Source of the DNA: Escherichia phage HEMP4 | Strand: one strand, 5' to 3' | Sequence record: OR424387.1 | Length of the DNA stretch: 39,891 nt | Shown: positions 33,055 through 38,666 of the stretch, in pieces | How the letters are laid out: every line of letters starts with the position of its first letter | Position numbering within the stretch: the first letter of the stretch is position 1 | The notes under the pieces: generated by a model | What the model was told of the DNA's origin: nothing | Databases searched by the model: none | The model's input: the letters and a program-made list of their open reading frames with translations, nothing else | Translations under genes and position numbers: made by a program

Positions 33055-33083
33055 GTCCACAAAAAAGCCCGCAGCGCGGGCTA
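33055..33083 (-). terminator. Rho-independent terminator for moron cassette
   Basis: On minus strand TAG-CCCGC-gct-GCGGGC followed by TTTTTT; stop codon embedded in stem. Confidence 0.7.
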
Positions 33084-33521
33084 TTCTTCTTCATCATTAA
33101 AAAGCGGATTGTTGTTTCCATCTGATGAAAGGAAAGGTATGTGTTCTCTTGAAAATCCAACAATGACAATTTCATTATCATTTTTTGCATAATGAATGCA
33201 TTCATTAGAATGCCTTCCGCTAGGGTTGAAATTTAAGTTAATGGTATAATTCTTAAATGTGTTTGGATACCATGTTGGCCCACAATGATAATGCCAATAA
33301 TTCTCTTGCTCATAATTGTCTGAGCCGGGAATTTTATCATGGTTATCATCAACCCATGAGGGCTTGTTTTTTCCAACAAGCGCCCTTCCATTGGCAACAT
33401 CCTCTAAAAAACTTTGTATGATTTTTATTTCATCATCAGTAAGGAAAGGTCCGTCTACAGCGAAAGGGGTGTTGCTTTCCCCATGTAGAAAACTATTAGA
33501 TATTCTAATGTTAAACTTCAA
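33081..33521 (-). CDS. Hypothetical moron protein B (146 aa), AT-rich, acidic C-terminus, probable TTG start
   Basis: ORF track 33081..33662; no in-frame ATG after upstream gene stop; TTG at 33521 sits 7 nt after AGGAG; Asn/Asp/Glu-rich with HYHCGP and C-terminal NDEEE. Confidence 0.5.
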   Translation of the reverse strand: MKFNIRISNSFLHGESNTPFAVDGPFLTDDEIKIIQSFLEDVANGRALVGKNKPSWVDDNHDKIPGSDNYEQENYWHYHCGPTWYPNTFKNYTINLNFNPSGRHSNECIHYAKNDNEIVIVGFSREHIPFLSSDGNNNPLFNDEEE

Positions 33522-33541
33522 GGAAAACTCCTGATGTGCTT

Positions 33542-33709
33542 CTATTTGGAGCGAAATGCCGCCTTGAAGTCGCTGAAAGATGTTCCTGTCTGGTAAACCA
33601 TATCCTTGTCGCGCTCTTTGCTTGCGCGGCCAAGCATAACTTTTCCAATGACATCCCAGCATTGCTTGGCTTGTTCATTGTGCTGAGTACGATTTTTCAA
33701 CGCTGTCAT
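33542..33709 (-). CDS. Hypothetical small moron protein A (55 aa)
   Basis: Hand-translated MTALKNRTQHNEQAKQCWDVIGKVMLGRASKERDKDMVYQTGTSFSDFKAAFRSK; GGAGG SD 6 nt upstream; operator-like site just upstream. Confidence 0.4.
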   Translation of the reverse strand: MTALKNRTQHNEQAKQCWDVIGKVMLGRASKERDKDMVYQTGTSFSDFKAAFRSK

Positions 33710-33779: not shown

Positions 33780-34045
33780 GCACATCCCTGTGCCGCCGCC
33801 CGTCAGAAGAACCCAGCCTTGTCGTTGATGTACTCCGCGTGGGTCTGGATATCACGCAGGCATTTGCTCACACCGACGATGTAGCAGAACATGGTGGTCA
33901 GCTCCGCCGCCGCGCCCGATACGTCGTGCCCGTCTTCCTGTAACTGGTTCAGCAGATTCATCAGCAGTGAGTTCTCCGTCAGGCCGAGAACACCAGACGG
34001 CGAATGAATCAGGCTACGGTAGCCGGGCTTCAGTGGGGCACTGTA
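33780..34045. repeat. Internal direct repeat copy B (matches 1578..1842)
   Basis: Same as copy A. Confidence 0.85.
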
Positions 34046-34513
34046 GGTTTTGTTCTCTATCTTCATCGCCTGCATTACTGCTGACGCCGTGGCGTTGGCT
34101 ACCTGGTCGGCAACCATCTTTATGCGTTCTTCCTGCGGGAGCGAGTTTTTAATGTAACTTCCGGTGCGGCGGATCTGAGGAAGAACCTCACCTGTAACCC
34201 ATTTACGAAAGCGGTAGGGGATAGTGCCTGGTGTCACTGCGTCGCGGCAGCGGAGGATCAGTGTGTAGAGGCCTGACTCGGAGATGATGTTGATCTCTTT
34301 TACTCGGCTGTCAAAAATTGCACGATGTTCATGCCCTATGTTGAACATAGACCTTTCATCATCATCCAGTTTTTCAAGTGCTTGGGTGACGTTTTGGATG
34401 CGCAGCGCACTACAAACGTCTTGGGCTACAAACCATGGTTGGCCATCGATAATGATGGAACGGATAGGGTTAACAGATTCAAATTTGAAGATGGCAGTTT
34501 GAGCATTAGCCAT
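33803..34513 (-). CDS. Bro-N domain antirepressor-like protein with shared C-terminal domain
   Basis: ATG at 34513 (ORF track GTG 34528); N-terminal AIFKFESVNPIRSIIIDGQPWFVAQDVCSAL is classic Bro-N; C-terminal 80 aa identical to C-terminus of 1600..2256 gene. Confidence 0.75.
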   Translation of the reverse strand: MANAQTAIFKFESVNPIRSIIIDGQPWFVAQDVCSALRIQNVTQALEKLDDDERSMFNIGHEHRAIFDSRVKEINIISESGLYTLILRCRDAVTPGTIPYRFRKWVTGEVLPQIRRTGSYIKNSLPQEERIKMVADQVANATASAVMQAMKIENKTYSAPLKPGYRSLIHSPSGVLGLTENSLLMNLLNQLQEDGHDVSGAAAELTTMFCYIVGVSKCLRDIQTHAEYINDKAGFF

Positions 34514-34667
34514 GGTGGTTATCTCCACTTAGTGATTTTAATCACCACCGCAACGCCAATTACTGGTGGTGAACTGGACAAGGTTGGCGTACCGGCCTAA
34601 GTGGTACCGGCGTCCTTTCGGACCCCTGCCCAGCCCACCATAATTCGGATATAGCTGTGCTTAACGC

Positions 34668-34828: not shown

Positions 34829-35086
34829 TTATCTGGTTTGCTTTCGTAATTGTTCGGCACAATAGTCGAGATGTGTTTGCAGATCCCGCATAGACATCTG
34901 TGAGCTGGTGACGTAGTTAATCAGTGCAGTCAGTTCGGCAAGTGGGCCATCGACATTAAATCCATCCTTATCGAGATCCCGGAGTAATTTCATCAAGTGC
35001 GATCCCTCCACCAGTGACCTGACGCCTCCCGGCGTGTGAATCCTTTCGGTAAATCCGTCTTCCAGTGGATAGTGATACTGCTGCAT
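34829..35086 (-). CDS. Small antirepressor-like protein (85 aa), free-standing homolog of the shared C-terminal domain; LexA box upstream
   Basis: ATG 35086 with GGAGAA SD (ORF track TTG 35104); IHTPGGVRSLVEGSHLMKLL...DGPLAELTALINYVTSSQMSMRDLQTHLDY aligns with [20 protein letters not shown]...[30 protein letters not shown] of the two larger proteins. Confidence 0.6.
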   Translation of the reverse strand: MQQYHYPLEDGFTERIHTPGGVRSLVEGSHLMKLLRDLDKDGFNVDGPLAELTALINYVTSSQMSMRDLQTHLDYCAEQLRKQTR

Positions 35087-35105
35087 CTTATCTTCTCCAT
35101 GCAAT

Positions 35106-35125
35106 AACTGTATAAATATACAGTA
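35106..35125. promoter_or_regulatory. LexA (SOS) box
   Basis: aaCTGTataaatatACAGta: CTGT-N8-ACAG with AT-rich spacer, matching consensus; 20 bp upstream of small Ant-like gene start. Confidence 0.7.
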
Positions 35126-35162
35126 TCAAATAATTTGTTTGCTATCCAGCACGTTTTGCAAA

Positions 35163-35177
35163 TCACCTGAAAGGTAA
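35163..35177. promoter_or_regulatory. Operator-like site (9/10 match, TCACC-N5-GGTAA)
   Basis: tcacctgaaaggtaa between LexA box and tailspike start. Confidence 0.4.
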
Positions 35178-35281
35178 TATCTTTTCGTATTTATGGGTTA
35201 TCTATCCATATGTGGTTTTTCAGGTAATAGAATAACCAGATATGCGGCGCAACGGGTGCTGCGACTATCTGGAGATTTAAC

Positions 35282-37471
35282 ATGACGGTCTCAACCGAAG
35301 TTGACCACAACGAATACACAGGTAACGGCGTTACGACATCATTTCCGTATACCTTCCGTATTTTCAAAAAATCCGACCTGGTTGTTCAGGTGTCTGACCT
35401 GAACGGGAACGTAACAGAATTGGTTCTGGATACCGGTTATACGGTAACTGGGGCGGGCACTTATAGTGGCGGTTCTGTGGTTCTTCCGTCTCCGCTTGCT
35501 GCTGGCTGGCGAATTACGATAGAGCGTGTGCTTGATGTGGTGCAGGAGACTGATCTTCGCAATCAGGGAAAATTTTTCCCCGAAGTTCATGAAGATGCAT
35601 TTGACTACCTGACGATGCTGATCCAGCGATGTTTTGGGTGGTTCAGACGTGCATTGATGAAACCATCTTTGCTTGCAAAATATTACGATGCAAAGCAAAA
35701 CAAAATTTCTAACCTTGCAGATCCATCATTTGAGCAGGACGCTGTAAATAATCGCTCAATGCGTAATTATGTCGATGCTGCAATCGCCGGGGTTGTTGGT
35801 GGTTTTGGTTGGTTTATACCGTCAGGAAGCGGGGCAAGACAACGAACATTTCAAAGCAAAATGAGGGATATAATTTCTCCTTGTGATTACGAAGATAATA
35901 TTTTTATGATTAAGGAGTTGATATCCAAAGGCAAAAATGCCGCTGTTTTTAACTCATATTATACTTTTGTTATTACTGTTGGCGAATGGGGTGATTACCC
36001 TACACTCAAAGATGCAATCATTGCAGCCCAGTCAATGAGACCTATGTGGGATGGTGGTAATGCTTTCTGCGAAATAAGAATTAAGACCGGGCATATTATC
36101 AACTATCAAATTGAATTCAGTTCAGGTGTTGATTTGTCTTGGATTAAAATAACATCAGAAGACTCAGTGGTTTTCTCTGACACTCGTTTGTTTACTAAAA
36201 TCGTTAGAACGTATTACGAATACAAGTATTTATTTTACATTTGCGATGCAGCAAAAAGTCCTGTATTTGCTATTCAGATCGAAGAAAATAGAGATGATAG
36301 CGATGTTTGTGCATTTATTGTAACTCAAAAAGCTGAACTTAATTTCTATCCGTATTCAGGTGCTCGAAAGTTCTACGTTGGAATTCATGGTAGTTTTGGT
36401 GCAAAAATTAGTGCATATCATACCGGATGTGCTCCTGATGAGGAAAGTGTTGCTGCATATATGCCAGAAGGGTATTACGTATGTGATTTTTCTTATAGCA
36501 GATACTCTTCCCTGCAACTGGTAAATAATGTCAAGGCATCAATGCCTGTAAGCAAGTTTGAACGGTGCACAGAGAGTACGGTTGCGTCAGTTAATTGTAT
36601 TTATAATGTTAAAGCAGATTTTCAGGGGTCAAGTGCAAGCTATTGTTATATAGGATGGAATGTAAGAGATGGTTCAAATGTTAATATACGCGACCATAAA
36701 ACTATACATTGCTCATATCGTGGATTAACCTGCATTCATACAGCATATGTTGATGCAAGACGACATGACGTTGAAGAAAGTGATGCAGAAACAAGTGGTA
36801 AAGTCCTTGAACCAAATATTGAAAAAGGTTTTTATGGATGTGCACTTGGTGTGCGTATTGATGGTGCGGGTTGCGTTGATGTTGCTGGTAATGATATGCG
36901 CAATTGTGGAACAGCCGTTAATGCAGACACTGGTGCTGTTATTTCAGGAAAGGCTGTAGATATCTCAGGGGCTGAGCTGGGATTTGATTGCCATGCAGGA
37001 GCATCTGTTAATTTTCCAAGGCTATGGGGTACAGATATAAAAAAATTAATGCACCTCCAAGATGGTGTAAGGTTTAACTCTAATATTTGTCATGTATTTG
37101 GTGCAAATCCCACAAAAGATATTAGATGGATTGATGTAGAGAGATCTGAAGCTTCTTTTATGAATGCAACGCTGGATGCAGATTCAGGATTTATTGCCGA
37201 CTGTGGTAGTAGGATAACCATTGAAGGAAGTAAAGTTAAAAACCAAACAATAAGAAGTTTTTTTGGATCATATGTGGCTATAAATAATACTGTTGCTGAC
37301 AGAACTTATTCAGATATAGCCGATGTTCCGCAGTTGACTATTAGTGGAGGATCTTTTATTTCTGCTACAGGATATTCTAATTCTGACTCCAGCCCTCTGA
37401 GGTTGAGCACAACACGAAATACACTTGGCGTTGGAGGAGCCATATTTTCAACCAATGGGGAAGTTTCATGA
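35282..37471 (+). CDS. Tail fiber/tailspike: T7 gp17-like N-terminal adaptor domain plus beta-helix-like receptor-binding region
   Basis: 729 aa; N-terminal YTGNGVTTSFPYTFRIFKKSDLVVQV resembles T7 tail fiber N-terminal domain; central/C-terminal Gly/Asn/Val-rich repeats typical of parallel beta-helix depolymerases; distal part AT-rich. Confidence 0.75.
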   Translation: MTVSTEVDHNEYTGNGVTTSFPYTFRIFKKSDLVVQVSDLNGNVTELVLDTGYTVTGAGTYSGGSVVLPSPLAAGWRITIERVLDVVQETDLRNQGKFFPEVHEDAFDYLTMLIQRCFGWFRRALMKPSLLAKYYDAKQNKISNLADPSFEQDAVNNRSMRNYVDAAIAGVVGGFGWFIPSGSGARQRTFQSKMRDIISPCDYEDNIFMIKELISKGKNAAVFNSYYTFVITVGEWGDYPTLKDAIIAAQSMRPMWDGGNAFCEIRIKTGHIINYQIEFSSGVDLSWIKITSEDSVVFSDTRLFTKIVRTYYEYKYLFYICDAAKSPVFAIQIEENRDDSDVCAFIVTQKAELNFYPYSGARKFYVGIHGSFGAKISAYHTGCAPDEESVAAYMPEGYYVCDFSYSRYSSLQLVNNVKASMPVSKFERCTESTVASVNCIYNVKADFQGSSASYCYIGWNVRDGSNVNIRDHKTIHCSYRGLTCIHTAYVDARRHDVEESDAETSGKVLEPNIEKGFYGCALGVRIDGAGCVDVAGNDMRNCGTAVNADTGAVISGKAVDISGAELGFDCHAGASVNFPRLWGTDIKKLMHLQDGVRFNSNICHVFGANPTKDIRWIDVERSEASFMNATLDADSGFIADCGSRITIEGSKVKNQTIRSFFGSYVAINNTVADRTYSDIADVPQLTISGGSFISATGYSNSDSSPLRLSTTRNTLGVGGAIFSTNGEVS

Positions 37472-37764
37472 TTAAGAGCATTGATGTCACTCCATTTCTT
37501 CACTCGCTTTGCGCTTTTGTGGCTCAGGTACTGGTTGGTATTTTTACCGGAAACTGGGCTTACGGTGCGATAGCCGGTTGTACGTTCTTCATTGCGCGTG
37601 AACACACCCAGGCAGAATATCGCTGGATAGAAAAGTTTGGGAAAGGGAAACGTATCAACATGCCGTGGTGGGGAGGTTTTGATCCACGCGTGTGGGATGT
37701 GGGAAGTCTGTTGGATTTTGCTGTTCCTGTTGTTTTTTGTTTTTGTGTTTATTTCTCTATTTGA
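37468..37764 (+). CDS. Small membrane protein (98 aa), translationally coupled to tailspike
   Basis: ATGA overlap with tailspike stop; two hydrophobic segments; function unknown. Confidence 0.5.
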   Translation: MIKSIDVTPFLHSLCAFVAQVLVGIFTGNWAYGAIAGCTFFIAREHTQAEYRWIEKFGKGKRINMPWWGGFDPRVWDVGSLLDFAVPVVFCFCVYFSI

Positions 37765-37966
37765 CTGCTACCGCGCCATTAAATGGTGCGGTATTCAACC
37801 TGCTCTTCACTGTTTGTTTCTTCAGAGTCATGTAAAAGGTGAGCTTTATTCTCGGCATGAAAAACAGGGAATTGACGATGTTAAAGTAACAAAAAACCAT
37901 AAATGGTTTATTATGCGTAATGCTTTACTGTTCAGGAGGTTGTTATGCATATAAACGGTGGAAAAC

Positions 37967-38371
37967 ATGTCAGCTCAACTAACCAGTGAAACTTTAAATC
38001 AGTGGCTTAGCATGAGTTCTCTGGCGGCGGTGATAGCAGGAGTTCCTCCTGAGGTTGCTTTGGGTGCTTTGGCTGGAGCGGTAATTTTTGTTACCTCTGC
38101 AGTAGAGTACCCCATCCGTCGCCGGGTGCTCCTGTCGATGCTCAGCTTTCTTTGCGGCCTTCTCTTTTACAAACCAGCAGCATCAATTCTTATCGGCATA
38201 GCCAGCCTGATCCCTACCATCACGCAGGACTCTTTTGAAAAAGGGATTGTTTTCTCTGCAGGCGCATTCGTGTCAGCAATTGTCGCTGTGCGTATTGGTA
38301 TATGGCTCTATCACCGTTCCGATAATCCACGCGAGTTAATTCCGGGGAGAAAAGACGATGGTAACGCATGA
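37967..38371 (+). CDS. Putative holin (membrane protein, about 3 TM)
   Basis: ORF track 37958..38371; ATG 37967 after GGTGGA; hydrophobic segments, charged C-terminus; located upstream of endolysin. Confidence 0.45.
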   Translation: MSAQLTSETLNQWLSMSSLAAVIAGVPPEVALGALAGAVIFVTSAVEYPIRRRVLLSMLSFLCGLLFYKPAASILIGIASLIPTITQDSFEKGIVFSAGAFVSAIVAVRIGIWLYHRSDNPRELIPGRKDDGNA

Positions 38372-38666
38372 GTTTTTTTTGCTTATCACCAATGCAGTTA
38401 TTTGCACTGGCATAGCAATTCGCGTTGTCACATTCCGGCGTAACGGCTCTCAACACCGAAGGTGGGGAGGATGGCTTGCTTATTTCCTGATTGTTGCTGC
38501 GGCCAGTATTCCTGTTCGTGTCGCCTATGCAATCTGGTTACGTACGCCAATGGCTGTGGATTTATCTGAGGTCATTATCAACGCTGTCATGCTAGCTGCG
38601 GTTATTAAAACGCGCGGTAACGTCGTTCAAATTTTCAAAGTATCGAGGTCTAAACATGGAGATTAA
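38358..38666 (+). CDS. Putative holin/antiholin (membrane protein)
   Basis: 102 aa hydrophobic protein overlapping both neighbours. Confidence 0.45.

Follow-up and report, generated by a model that had tools for sequence, protein, structure and literature searches.

The gene studied here lies on the plus strand at positions 35282-37471 of the analysed window, the 39,891-nucleotide sequence of Escherichia phage HEMP4 (OR424387.1). Its 729-codon open reading frame encodes a tailspike or receptor-binding protein (RBP) and opens with an ATG preceded, 7 nt upstream, by a GGAG Shine-Dalgarno sequence. As judged from the ORFs and their PHROG hits, the gene is carried by a ~39-kb temperate podovirus, and it is the only RBP gene seen within this epsilon15/phiV10-like prophage region. 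In gene order it corresponds to the tail fibre genes of phiV10 and epsilon15: ant-like genes in reverse orientation precede it, and a moron slot and a holin-endolysin-spanin cassette follow. The DNA on either side shares 91-95% identity with phiv142-3, ZX5 and phiV10. Over its full length the protein matches PHROG 5662 ('tail fiber protein'), and for E. coli EC332 RefSeq labels it 'phage tail protein'; it is already present in both resources, and is an ordinary case of known modularity. It is predicted to be assembled on the virion as the tailspike. A scan of 34900-38100 for promoters and terminators returned counts within the shuffled expectation.

The stop codon of the tailspike gene is overlapped (ATGA) by a small ORF on the same strand (37468-37764), whose 98-amino-acid product is a membrane protein with about three hydrophobic segments. 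This ORF occupies the serotype-conversion slot, where phiV10 has oac and epsilon15 its O-antigen polymerase/inhibitor genes. Its product matches phrog_1443, a family of unknown function, is 89% identical to JEP4_21 and has homologues in 69 phage records of Uetake-type, P22-like and lambdoid phages; no match for it was found in Pfam, NCBIfam or PADLOC, nor any similarity to the epsilon15 alpha-polymerase inhibitor. Further downstream, at 37943-38500 (plus strand), every relative is back on the Uetakevirus backbone, with a holin-like membrane protein and a holin: from 37943 the sequence is 94.5% identical to ZX5, and both Phage_holin_8 and PHROG holin hits fall in this interval.

The N-terminal anchor (35282-35817, plus strand; aa 1-179) belongs to the same backbone. 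DNA from 35000 to 35817 is 95-97% identical to that of three E. coli Uetakeviruses, and this identity stops at 35817, that is, at residue 179. Protein similarity to phiV10 and epsilon15 ends slightly earlier, at residues 165-166, with nothing further; in BLASTP searches the anchor was 68% identical to phiV10 over aa 1-162 (E 3e-67) and 72% identical to epsilon15 over aa 1-161 (E 6e-69). A boundary after about 170 codons, or near 35850, as the sequence-only reading had proposed, therefore agrees well with both breakpoints. The first ~165-205 residues of the phiV10/epsilon15 RBP, by which a Uetakevirus RBP is recognized, are thus represented here, and 21 other PHROG families share with the protein only residues 1 to ~166-206. 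The same reading had likened the N-terminus to T7-type fibers, a resemblance that holds for the fold and fails at the level of sequence. PF03906 (Phage_T7_tail) reached only 12 bits (E 0.18) over aa 135-161, below its gathering threshold of 25.2 bits, and when the anchor alignment was compared by hhalign with a protein bearing PF03906, no match emerged (probability 0.07%); the anchor shares the three-dimensional fold of the gp17 N-terminus, and the T7 link was recovered by fold comparison only. In a sequence search of the PDB the anchor alone was matched, the distal part remaining without a match. Residues 1 to ~166-179 form a small beta-sandwich plus helix of the T7 gp17 N-terminal type, which co-evolves with the virion backbone and, by analogy with the T7 and Carin-1 tail structures, would probably dock a trimer onto the tail.

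Beyond the anchor, the relationships of the gene change. All three Uetakevirus relatives break at 35817, the match to ZX5 declines from 100% identity to 56% over the stretch 35800-35850, and the closest Uetakeviruses have nothing alignable in the distal 1.4 kb. The break coincides with a junction motif, W-F-I-x-x-G-S-G-A-x-x-R-T-F-Q-x-K-M-R-D-x-I-S (aa 177-199; 35810-35878, plus strand), which marks the left edge of the swappable module and is conserved in protein alignments of ZX5, phiv142-3 and EC.W1-9 despite their unrelated receptor-binding domains (RBDs); a related motif, R-T-Q-H-D-K-N-A-E-I-I-S, opens the module in JEP4 and in 92CQ. From 36099 to 37727 the sequence is 98% identical at the nucleotide level to the P22-like phages JEP4 and HZ41 (Lederbergvirus; 97.9% for JEP4), and the 130-kb phage 92CQ matches 36099-37484 at 97.5% identity. 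The mosaic is hence one of three tiers rather than two, with an extra junction inside the RBD near 36099. The main beta-helix part of the RBD (36099-37471, plus strand; aa 273-729) recurs nearly unchanged in the P22-like phages and the large myovirus. The first part (35818-36098, plus strand; aa 180-272) is private: no DNA match to it was found in the phage collection, or in E. coli genomes beyond the 11 that carry the whole gene, and its protein is 34-53% identical to JEP4, so that it represents a diverged allele within one RBD family.

Because the two halves have their closest relatives in different phage genera, these comparisons directly show horizontal exchange of the distal module, over and above any argument from base composition, and bear out the earlier proposal of a mosaic tailspike with a swapped receptor-binding module. 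The module is moreover joined elsewhere to other anchors. Among 24 relatives of the RBD (37-100% identity, at least 97% coverage of aa 180-729), the N-termini belong to PF09008, PF18668, PF12571 or PF03906, or to no known family, so that the module is found behind P22 Head_binding, Tail_spike_N, tail-collar and T7-tail N-termini; the JEP4 spike matches Pfam Head_binding with an E-value of 1.8e-61. Both halves together were found in no phage record, none of which covers 80% or more of the gene. Full-length colinear copies are confined to 11 E. coli genomes, and all are at least 99% identical.

The composition of the gene, which had been described as AT-rich from about 35850 onward, was analysed as well. 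GC content is 46.1% in 35282-35817, 38.4% in 35818-36098 and 37.9% in 36099-37471, as compared with 48.8% for the whole window. The distal 1654 nt (38.0% GC) fall in the lowest 0.55% of all windows of that size (mean 48.9%, sd 2.9), and the window-wide minimum of the same-size scan begins at 35841. At third codon positions GC falls from 43% (codons 1-179) to 24% (codons 180-729), the structural ORFs having 49% (range 41-59%). A single change-point test gave a log-likelihood ratio of 7.3 over all positions, matched by 3 of 1000 permutations; for third positions only it gave 14.2, matched by none of 1000 permutations, with the best point at codon 126, which precedes the homology breakpoint by about 50 codons. 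In another all-position scan, 35652 and 35844 were nearly tied for best. The likelihood of synonymous codons relative to structural genes did not separate the halves (-1.10 versus -1.15; structural chunks -1.13 +/- 0.05). The discontinuity is consequently a step in GC and GC3 and not one of general codon preference. An even GC profile together with colinearity to a single homologue in related phages, which would have spoken against the sequence-only reading, was not observed.

Could the gene have evolved vertically, its AT-rich distal part merely reflecting the amino-acid composition of a beta-helix or relaxed constraint? The undivided codon likelihood is compatible with such a history, as are the low GC of other Uetakevirus RBDs (36-37% in phiv142-3 and EC.W1-9) and the colinearity of the whole gene in the 11 genomes. 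The last of these, however, represents a single prophage, and the drop in GC is strongest precisely at synonymous third positions. Over the distal 1.4 kb and part of the next gene there is 98% identity to phages that belong to another genus and have an unrelated anchor, the distal DNA also matches a 130-kb phage, and the closest Uetakeviruses lack alignable distal sequence. The phage DNA matches and the Uetakevirus break at 35817 refute vertical descent, which we regard as extremely improbable. Since Uetakevirus RBDs are commonly AT-rich, AT-richness by itself is uninformative on the age of the swap; low GC (38%, GC3 24%) belongs to the RBD cassette wherever the cassette occurs.

Under horizontal exchange, the cassette would have arisen by at least two putative homologous-recombination events. 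The junctions lie at the GSGA..RTFQ.KMRD.IS motif, at a point inside the RBD (~36099) and in the small downstream membrane-protein gene common to both genera. One exchange would have taken place at the short conserved motif of aa 177-199, which opens every RBD in this phage group. A second, putatively later one would have moved 36099 to ~37700 between Uetakevirus and P22-like (Lederbergvirus) lineages, with its left crossover falling within a pair of alleles from one RBD family and its right crossover within the small membrane-protein gene found behind the spike in both genera. In this gene, JEP4 and phiv142-3 each match a conserved core (37551-37700) at 96-100% identity; past 37700 identity to JEP4 falls to 0.46-0.68 while that to phiv142-3 holds at 0.74-0.94, and the core is, on this sequence evidence, the putative right-hand crossover zone. 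We conclude with high confidence that 35282-37471 encodes the tailspike of a temperate Uetakevirus (an epsilon15/phiV10-like podovirus) integrated in E. coli beside yfgI, in which an anchor is combined with a mobile beta-helix RBD cassette built by at least two recombination events.

The distal part had also been credited with beta-helix-like repeats. An AlphaFold2 monomer model (pLDDT 93.9) predicts a right-handed parallel beta-helix, in keeping with that description; no Pfam repeat family matches the region, and no family of Pfam, NCBIfam or PADLOC matches the distal 550 residues. Across the 24 relatives, D284, D294, E335, D402, D463, D538 (full-length numbering) and several Arg and His residues are invariant. 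The RBD would most likely bind, and probably cleave, a host surface polysaccharide. Alternatively, the beta-helix might be a non-enzymatic adhesin, or its target might be a widely conserved structure, for instance ECA or a type of LPS core, instead of a glycan specific to one serotype. Acidic, Arg and His residues with such invariance are typical of an active-site groove, and the high-scoring structural neighbours of the model are mostly depolymerases or tailspikes; the RBD is also rare (16 of 5426 complete E. coli genomes), which one would not expect if its receptor were common. We therefore consider this alternative unlikely.

A correlate of the receptor was sought in the genomes of the RBD's carriers, three of which (EC332, MS 198-1 and GPEC1186) have a second place that matches the RBD. 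The kps region 2 of strain 118UI, which is of ST69 and O15, occurs in 10 of the 16 carriers versus 40 of the 5426 genomes (Fisher p 1e-18), and the ten include hosts of both Uetake-type and P22-type prophages; MS 198-1 is capsule-positive as well. Most of these ten probably represent one clone (ST69), so that the association is not phylogenetically independent. The other six carriers lack the 118UI locus at megablast level, and they were absent among the matches listed in a distant blastn search for diverged capsule region 2. The commonest K locus of CC69 is K52 (PMC13171598), and the K52 label used here derives from that literature frequency, not from typing.

An O-antigen-specific tailspike, as in phiV10, epsilon15, P22 and HK620, would be the conventional reading, with O15 as the receptor and the prophage marking O15 hosts. 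In Uetakeviruses and Lederbergviruses the O-antigen is the typical target of the RBP, and the RBD of a prophage usually agrees with its host's serogroup (PMC10408124), and O15 wzx/wzy are indeed found in 6 of the 16 carriers versus 100 of the 5426 genomes (Fisher p 2e-7). Ten carriers, however, are not O15. The carriers show at least five O types, namely O15 (six), O11 (MS 198-1), O25 (GN02461), O83 (PD23) and O2/O50 (GPEC1186), EC332 having been left out because the synteny search for its O locus ended in rearranged DNA. A single serogroup, as expected of an O-antigen RBP subtype in the sense of Pas et al. (2023), does not embrace all carriers, and the O15 hypothesis was dropped once the additional O types had emerged. 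Every O15 carrier has the capsule locus while the reverse does not hold, which makes O15 the narrower, nested correlate; both associations are confounded by ST69 ancestry. We judge O15 specificity to be quite improbable. A suspected identity between 'E. coli E15', the host of JEP4, and an O15 genome named E15 was rejected, as the genome is from Hebei, China, and the JEP4 host is a Korean isolate.

The best receptor correlate is a group-2 capsule locus that is rare and characteristic of ST69/CC69 (probably K52); no single O serogroup fits. That the RBD is a depolymerase for this capsule rather than an O-antigen spike, common in nearly unchanged form to three unrelated types of phage (epsilon15-like, P22-like and a 130-kb myovirus), is a possibility that we advance only tentatively and with considerable doubt. 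JEP4, with the same RBD, reportedly lysed 48% of 67 diverse chicken isolates, mostly of phylogroup A (PMC8425383), a breadth that sits poorly with a narrow specificity for capsule. Neither a receptor nor a serotype is named in that paper, and the tables of Pas et al. (PMC10408124) list neither JEP4 nor HZ41.

The phenomenon itself is not new: exchange of anchors and RBDs among Uetakeviruses, Lederbergviruses and large multi-spike phages has been published and is already used in engineering. The locus offers a clean worked example with sharp breakpoints at the start motif, at an intra-RBD crossover and at a crossover in a shared downstream gene, as well as an uncharacterised RBD subtype among whose carriers encapsulated ExPEC of the ST69 type are overrepresented. 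Should the capsule link be true, the module would become a candidate reagent for typing or treating the ST69-type lineage, and the RBD would be the first sequence-defined enzyme against the K type whose invasive potential in bloodstream infection is reported as the highest.

Among known systems, phiV10 (YP_512279) and epsilon15 (gp20, NP_848228), both Uetakeviruses, have an anchor 68% and 72% identical, respectively, over aa 1-166, and a gene in the same place, after a reverse-oriented anti-repressor block and before the moron slot and holin/endolysin/spanin genes. They share the architecture described by Pas et al. (2023; PMC10408124), in which the anchor (the first 205 aa of the phiV10 RBP) is followed by an exchangeable RBD, and for which horizontal transfer to Lederbergviruses and others was reported. 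Their distal parts are unrelated in sequence to the HEMP4 RBD, and the HEMP4 prophage differs in carrying the 98-residue membrane protein in the serotype-conversion slot. The target of phiV10 is O157 and that of epsilon15 the Salmonella group E1 O-antigen. JEP4 (QOC67869) and HZ41 have the same receptor-binding beta-helix (97.9% nucleotide identity over 36099-37471; 97-100% amino-acid identity in every 30-residue block of aa 331-729) and share the downstream membrane-protein gene, whereas their anchor is a P22 head-binding domain (PF09008), the first ~90 RBD residues are only 34-53% identical, and virion type and integration module differ. More distantly, the N-terminal domain of T7 gp17 (PDB 7boz, 8e4g; PF03906) is 15-16% identical to the anchor, and the Dpo31 tailspike of phage Carin-1 (PDB 8ck1, 28lx) has a distal depolymerase without detectable sequence relation. 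The K1 endosialidase spikes of ZX5 and CUS-3 are capsule-specific depolymerases. In model comparisons, the closest structural relative of the RBD is the RBP gp15 of Staphylococcus phage Andhra (PDB 8egr; 15-16% identity), which differs in its Gram-positive host, its presumed wall teichoic acid receptor and its N-terminal attachment, and to which no enzymatic function is assigned. K52 is a phosphodiester-linked polymer, and structural kinship with the RBP of a teichoic-acid-binding phage would fit that chemistry.

An E. coli prophage of the epsilon15/phiV10-like type (Uetakevirus) makes up the window; phiv142-3, EC.W1-9, ZX5, TL-2011b and phiV10 match its right-hand 6.9 kb piecewise at 91-95% identity, and the chromosome of E. 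coli EC332 carries the same DNA adjoining yfgI/yfgH. The tailspike ORF (35282..37471, plus strand; ATG start, GGAG ribosome-binding site) encodes 729 aa and lies between a reverse-oriented anti-repressor-like gene block and a small "moron" slot followed by a holin/endolysin/spanin cassette, the position that the tail-fibre genes occupy in phiV10 and epsilon15. The protein belongs to the Uetakevirus receptor-binding protein (RBP) family by the homology of its anchor and by where its gene lies. The exact protein is already catalogued, both in PHROG 5662 ("tail fiber protein"), whose match spans it end to end (1-729 of 729), and in RefSeq as "phage tail protein". The neighbouring block contains a Bro-N/Ant-like anti-repressor (33803-34528, minus strand, 241 aa) and a 91-aa ORF (34829-35104, minus strand) whose only matches are PHROGs for the C-terminal domain of anti-repressors of this kind (phrog_450, 15539, 1760), making it either a free-standing or a residual copy of the Ant C-terminal domain. 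Upstream of the anti-repressor genes, an AT-rich 193-aa ORF (33081-33662, minus strand; about 37-41% GC; phrog_5954, function unknown) gave no match in Pfam or PADLOC and looks like another horizontally acquired moron.

Residues 1-166 of the tailspike, its N-terminal anchor, share 68% identity with the phiV10 RBP and 72% with epsilon15 gp20; past residue 166 there is no similarity to either. Among solved structures, the sole relative by sequence is Dpo31, a tailspike seen on the tail of phage Carin-1 (8ck1; E 5.5e-32, aa 1-202). The sequence-only reading had described this N-terminus as T7-type, which holds for the fold and presumably for the function but not for sequence-family membership: the Pfam T7 tail-fibre N-terminal family (PF03906) reached only 12 of the required 25.2 bits, with the match limited to aa 135-161, and comparison of the anchor profile with a PF03906-bearing protein found nothing.

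The same reading had noted an AT-rich distal region beginning near 35850, and the composition bears this out. GC content is 46.1% in 35282-35817, 38.4% in 35818-36098 and 37.9% in 36099-37471, against 48.8% for the whole window; the distal 1654 nt fall within the lowest 0.55% of equal-size windows, whose global minimum begins at 35841. GC3 drops from 43% in codons 1-179 to 24% in codons 180-729, the structural ORFs having a GC of 50.8% and a GC3 of 49% (range 41-59%). A single change-point model was significant: 3 of 1000 permutations reached it for all positions, and none of 1000 did so for GC3. In the GC3 test the best change point fell at codon 126 (window 35659), some 50 codons before DNA homology breaks off at 35817, so AT enrichment already extends into the anchor's helical end. 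Scoring synonymous codon choice by its likelihood under the usage of the structural genes gave no separation between the two halves; the step is thus one of GC content and not of general codon preference. Other Uetakevirus receptor-binding parts (RBDs) are similarly AT-rich (36.8% GC in phiv142-3, 36.1% in EC.W1-9, 44.5% in ZX5).

The suggested horizontal swap of this module is borne out by the two ends of the gene matching different phages. Among 50,697 phage records, gene nt 1-536 are 95-97% identical to ZX5, phiv142-3, EC.W1-9 and related prophage fragments, and nt 826-2190 are 98% identical to the P22-like phages JEP4 and HZ41 and to 92CQ; none of the records spans 80% of the gene, which, with the GC step, speaks against a compositionally uniform gene colinear with a single homologue. 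By blastn, window 35000-35817 aligns with these three Uetakeviruses, all of which break at 35817; phiv142-3 and EC.W1-9 match the backbone again from 37481, ZX5 from 37943. JEP4, a Lederbergvirus whose spike N-terminus is the Pfam Head_binding domain (E 1.8e-61), aligns over 36099-37727 (97.9%), and 92CQ, a 130-kb phage with several tail-spike/fibre genes in series, over 36099-37484 (97.5%). The intervening 281 nt (35818-36098, aa 180-272) are absent from 5426 complete E. coli genomes save 11 that carry the whole gene, and identity to the JEP4 protein is 34-53% over these residues, then 73%, then 93-100%. On these block matches the gene is built in three tiers: the anchor belongs to the backbone, the RBD start is a private and divergent allele, and the main RBD has been exchanged recently.

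At the left edge, the protein alignment of Uetakevirus RBPs whose RBDs are unrelated holds through W-F-I-x-x-G-S-G-A-x-x-R-T-F-Q-x-K-M-R-D-x-I-S (aa 177-199), and DNA identity collapses between 35800 and 35850; the module shared with JEP4 and 92CQ opens with a related motif, R-T-Q-H-D-K-N-A-E-I-I-S/T-P-N-D-F. At the right edge, a 98-aa membrane-protein ORF (37468-37764, plus strand; about three hydrophobic segments; phrog_1443, function unknown), whose start overlaps the tailspike stop codon, has homologues after tail-fibre/spike genes in 69 phage records, including Uetakeviruses (phiv142-3, EC.W1-9), P22-like phages (JEP4, HZ41, Gally) and many lambdoid phages. Both JEP4 and phiv142-3 match positions 37551-37700, inside this ORF, at 96-100% identity; past 37700, JEP4 identity falls to 0.46-0.68 while that of phiv142-3 holds at 0.74-0.94. 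The simplest reading of these alignments is that an older exchange at the RBD start motif would have been followed by homologous recombination, with one crossover near 36099-36150, between two alleles of one RBD family, and the other within the small shared downstream gene. The data fit transfer in either direction. The slot of the 98-aa ORF is occupied by oac in phiV10 and by O-antigen polymerase/inhibitor genes in epsilon15; the ORF has no Pfam, NCBIfam or PADLOC match and no similarity to the epsilon15 inhibitor, and a part in receptor masking or exclusion would be a guess from position.

A search with aa 180-729 returned 24 proteins, each with at least 97% query coverage and 37-100% identity, from named sources including E. 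coli, Aeromonas media and Salmonella enterica. Their N-termini belong to PF09008 (P22 head-binding), PF18668 (Tail_spike_N), PF12571 (tail collar), PF03906 (T7 tail) or to no known family. Two of the 24 (P0015 and P0018; 45-49% identity) have added SGNH/GDSL esterase domains, suggesting that some members of the family also deacylate their glycan substrate. The model built from the relatives' alignment is of high confidence (pLDDT 93.9, pTM 0.89) and has short strands in regular repeat, and the predicted fold is that of a beta-helix tailspike, in keeping with the beta-helix-like repeats proposed earlier. The relatives share many invariant acidic, Arg and His residues (among them D284, D294, E335, D402, D463 and D538, full-length numbering), and sequence allows no catalytic assignment.

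The RBD (36150-37471) occurs in 16 of the 5426 genomes, on a Uetakevirus anchor in 11 and on a P22 head-binding anchor in five, two of these five assemblies being equal in size and probably the same strain. O types were taken from PGAP wzx/wzy names and from a concatenated query counting carriers with the O15 polymerase gene. Six carriers are O15 (118UI, ECO_1_S, ECO_2_R, EECO1006, MSB1_7C, 24A16CRGN010), single carriers are O11 (MS 198-1), O25 with a frameshifted wzy (GN02461), O83 (PD23) and O2/O50 (GPEC1186), and the remaining six are not O15. With carriers of so many O types, the usual rule that a prophage RBD reflects the host serogroup fails here, and the RBD does not behave as a serogroup-specific RBP subtype. 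The O-antigen polymerase gene is annotated as frameshifted in GN02461 and also in an unrelated O15 strain, E. coli E15 (China); loss of O-antigen polymerisation would be a plausible way to escape phage. EC332 (NZ_AP039429.1), MS 198-1 (NZ_CP146687.1) and GPEC1186 (NZ_CM142789.1) each have a second chromosomal RBD-matching place, that of GPEC1186 also matching the private 35818-36098 segment; these could be second prophages or duplications. EC332 additionally carries, unrelated to the tailspike, a chromosomal mcr-1.1 in a genomic island (2918822-2920447).

Carrier 118UI (ST69) has a group-2 capsule locus at pheV (NZ_CP032515.1 3551944-3566660), for which K52 is a candidate label; its region 2 has genes for a large acyltransferase, a GT2, a HAD-type phosphatase and an unnamed protein of 525 aa. 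This serotype-specific region is found in only 40 of the 5426 genomes, and 10 of the 16 carriers are among those 40; the 10 include the O11 strain, a chicken isolate (99.5% locus variant) and three hosts of the P22-type prophage. All O15 carriers are capsule-positive, and not all capsule-positive carriers are O15. Carriage is associated with the capsule (Fisher p 1e-18) and with O15 (2e-7), in genomes that are largely one clone, so that the tests are not independent. The capsule is a tentative candidate for the RBD target, rather unlikely on balance: its region 2 is strongly over-represented among carriers, but six of the 16 lack the locus, and lysis by JEP4 has been reported for 48% of a diverse set of chicken isolates, most of them phylogroup A (PMC8425383). 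The O15 antigen, shared by six carriers, is a distinctly more doubtful target, and most of the probability lies with something else or a mixture. Of the K loci in CC69, K52 is the most common, and it is the K type for which the highest invasive potential has been reported; CC69 frequently switches O and K types (PMC13171598), which could also explain mismatched lysogens.

The literature searched contains neither this RBD subtype nor its target, nor any report that the small downstream gene acts as a common arm for recombination, and JEP4 and HZ41 are not in the tables of Pas et al. The sequence-only reading was correct, and the feature is ordinary and well understood in kind. The authors of the study on Staphylococcus phage Andhra relate its RBP domain to tailspikes and to enzymes that degrade polysaccharides (PMC9710869). 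Already published are the architecture, exchange with Lederbergviruses and large multi-spike phages, and the engineering use of such modules (PMC10408124), and the exchange model fits the picture drawn there of conserved anchors and exchangeable RBDs flanked by sequence motifs.
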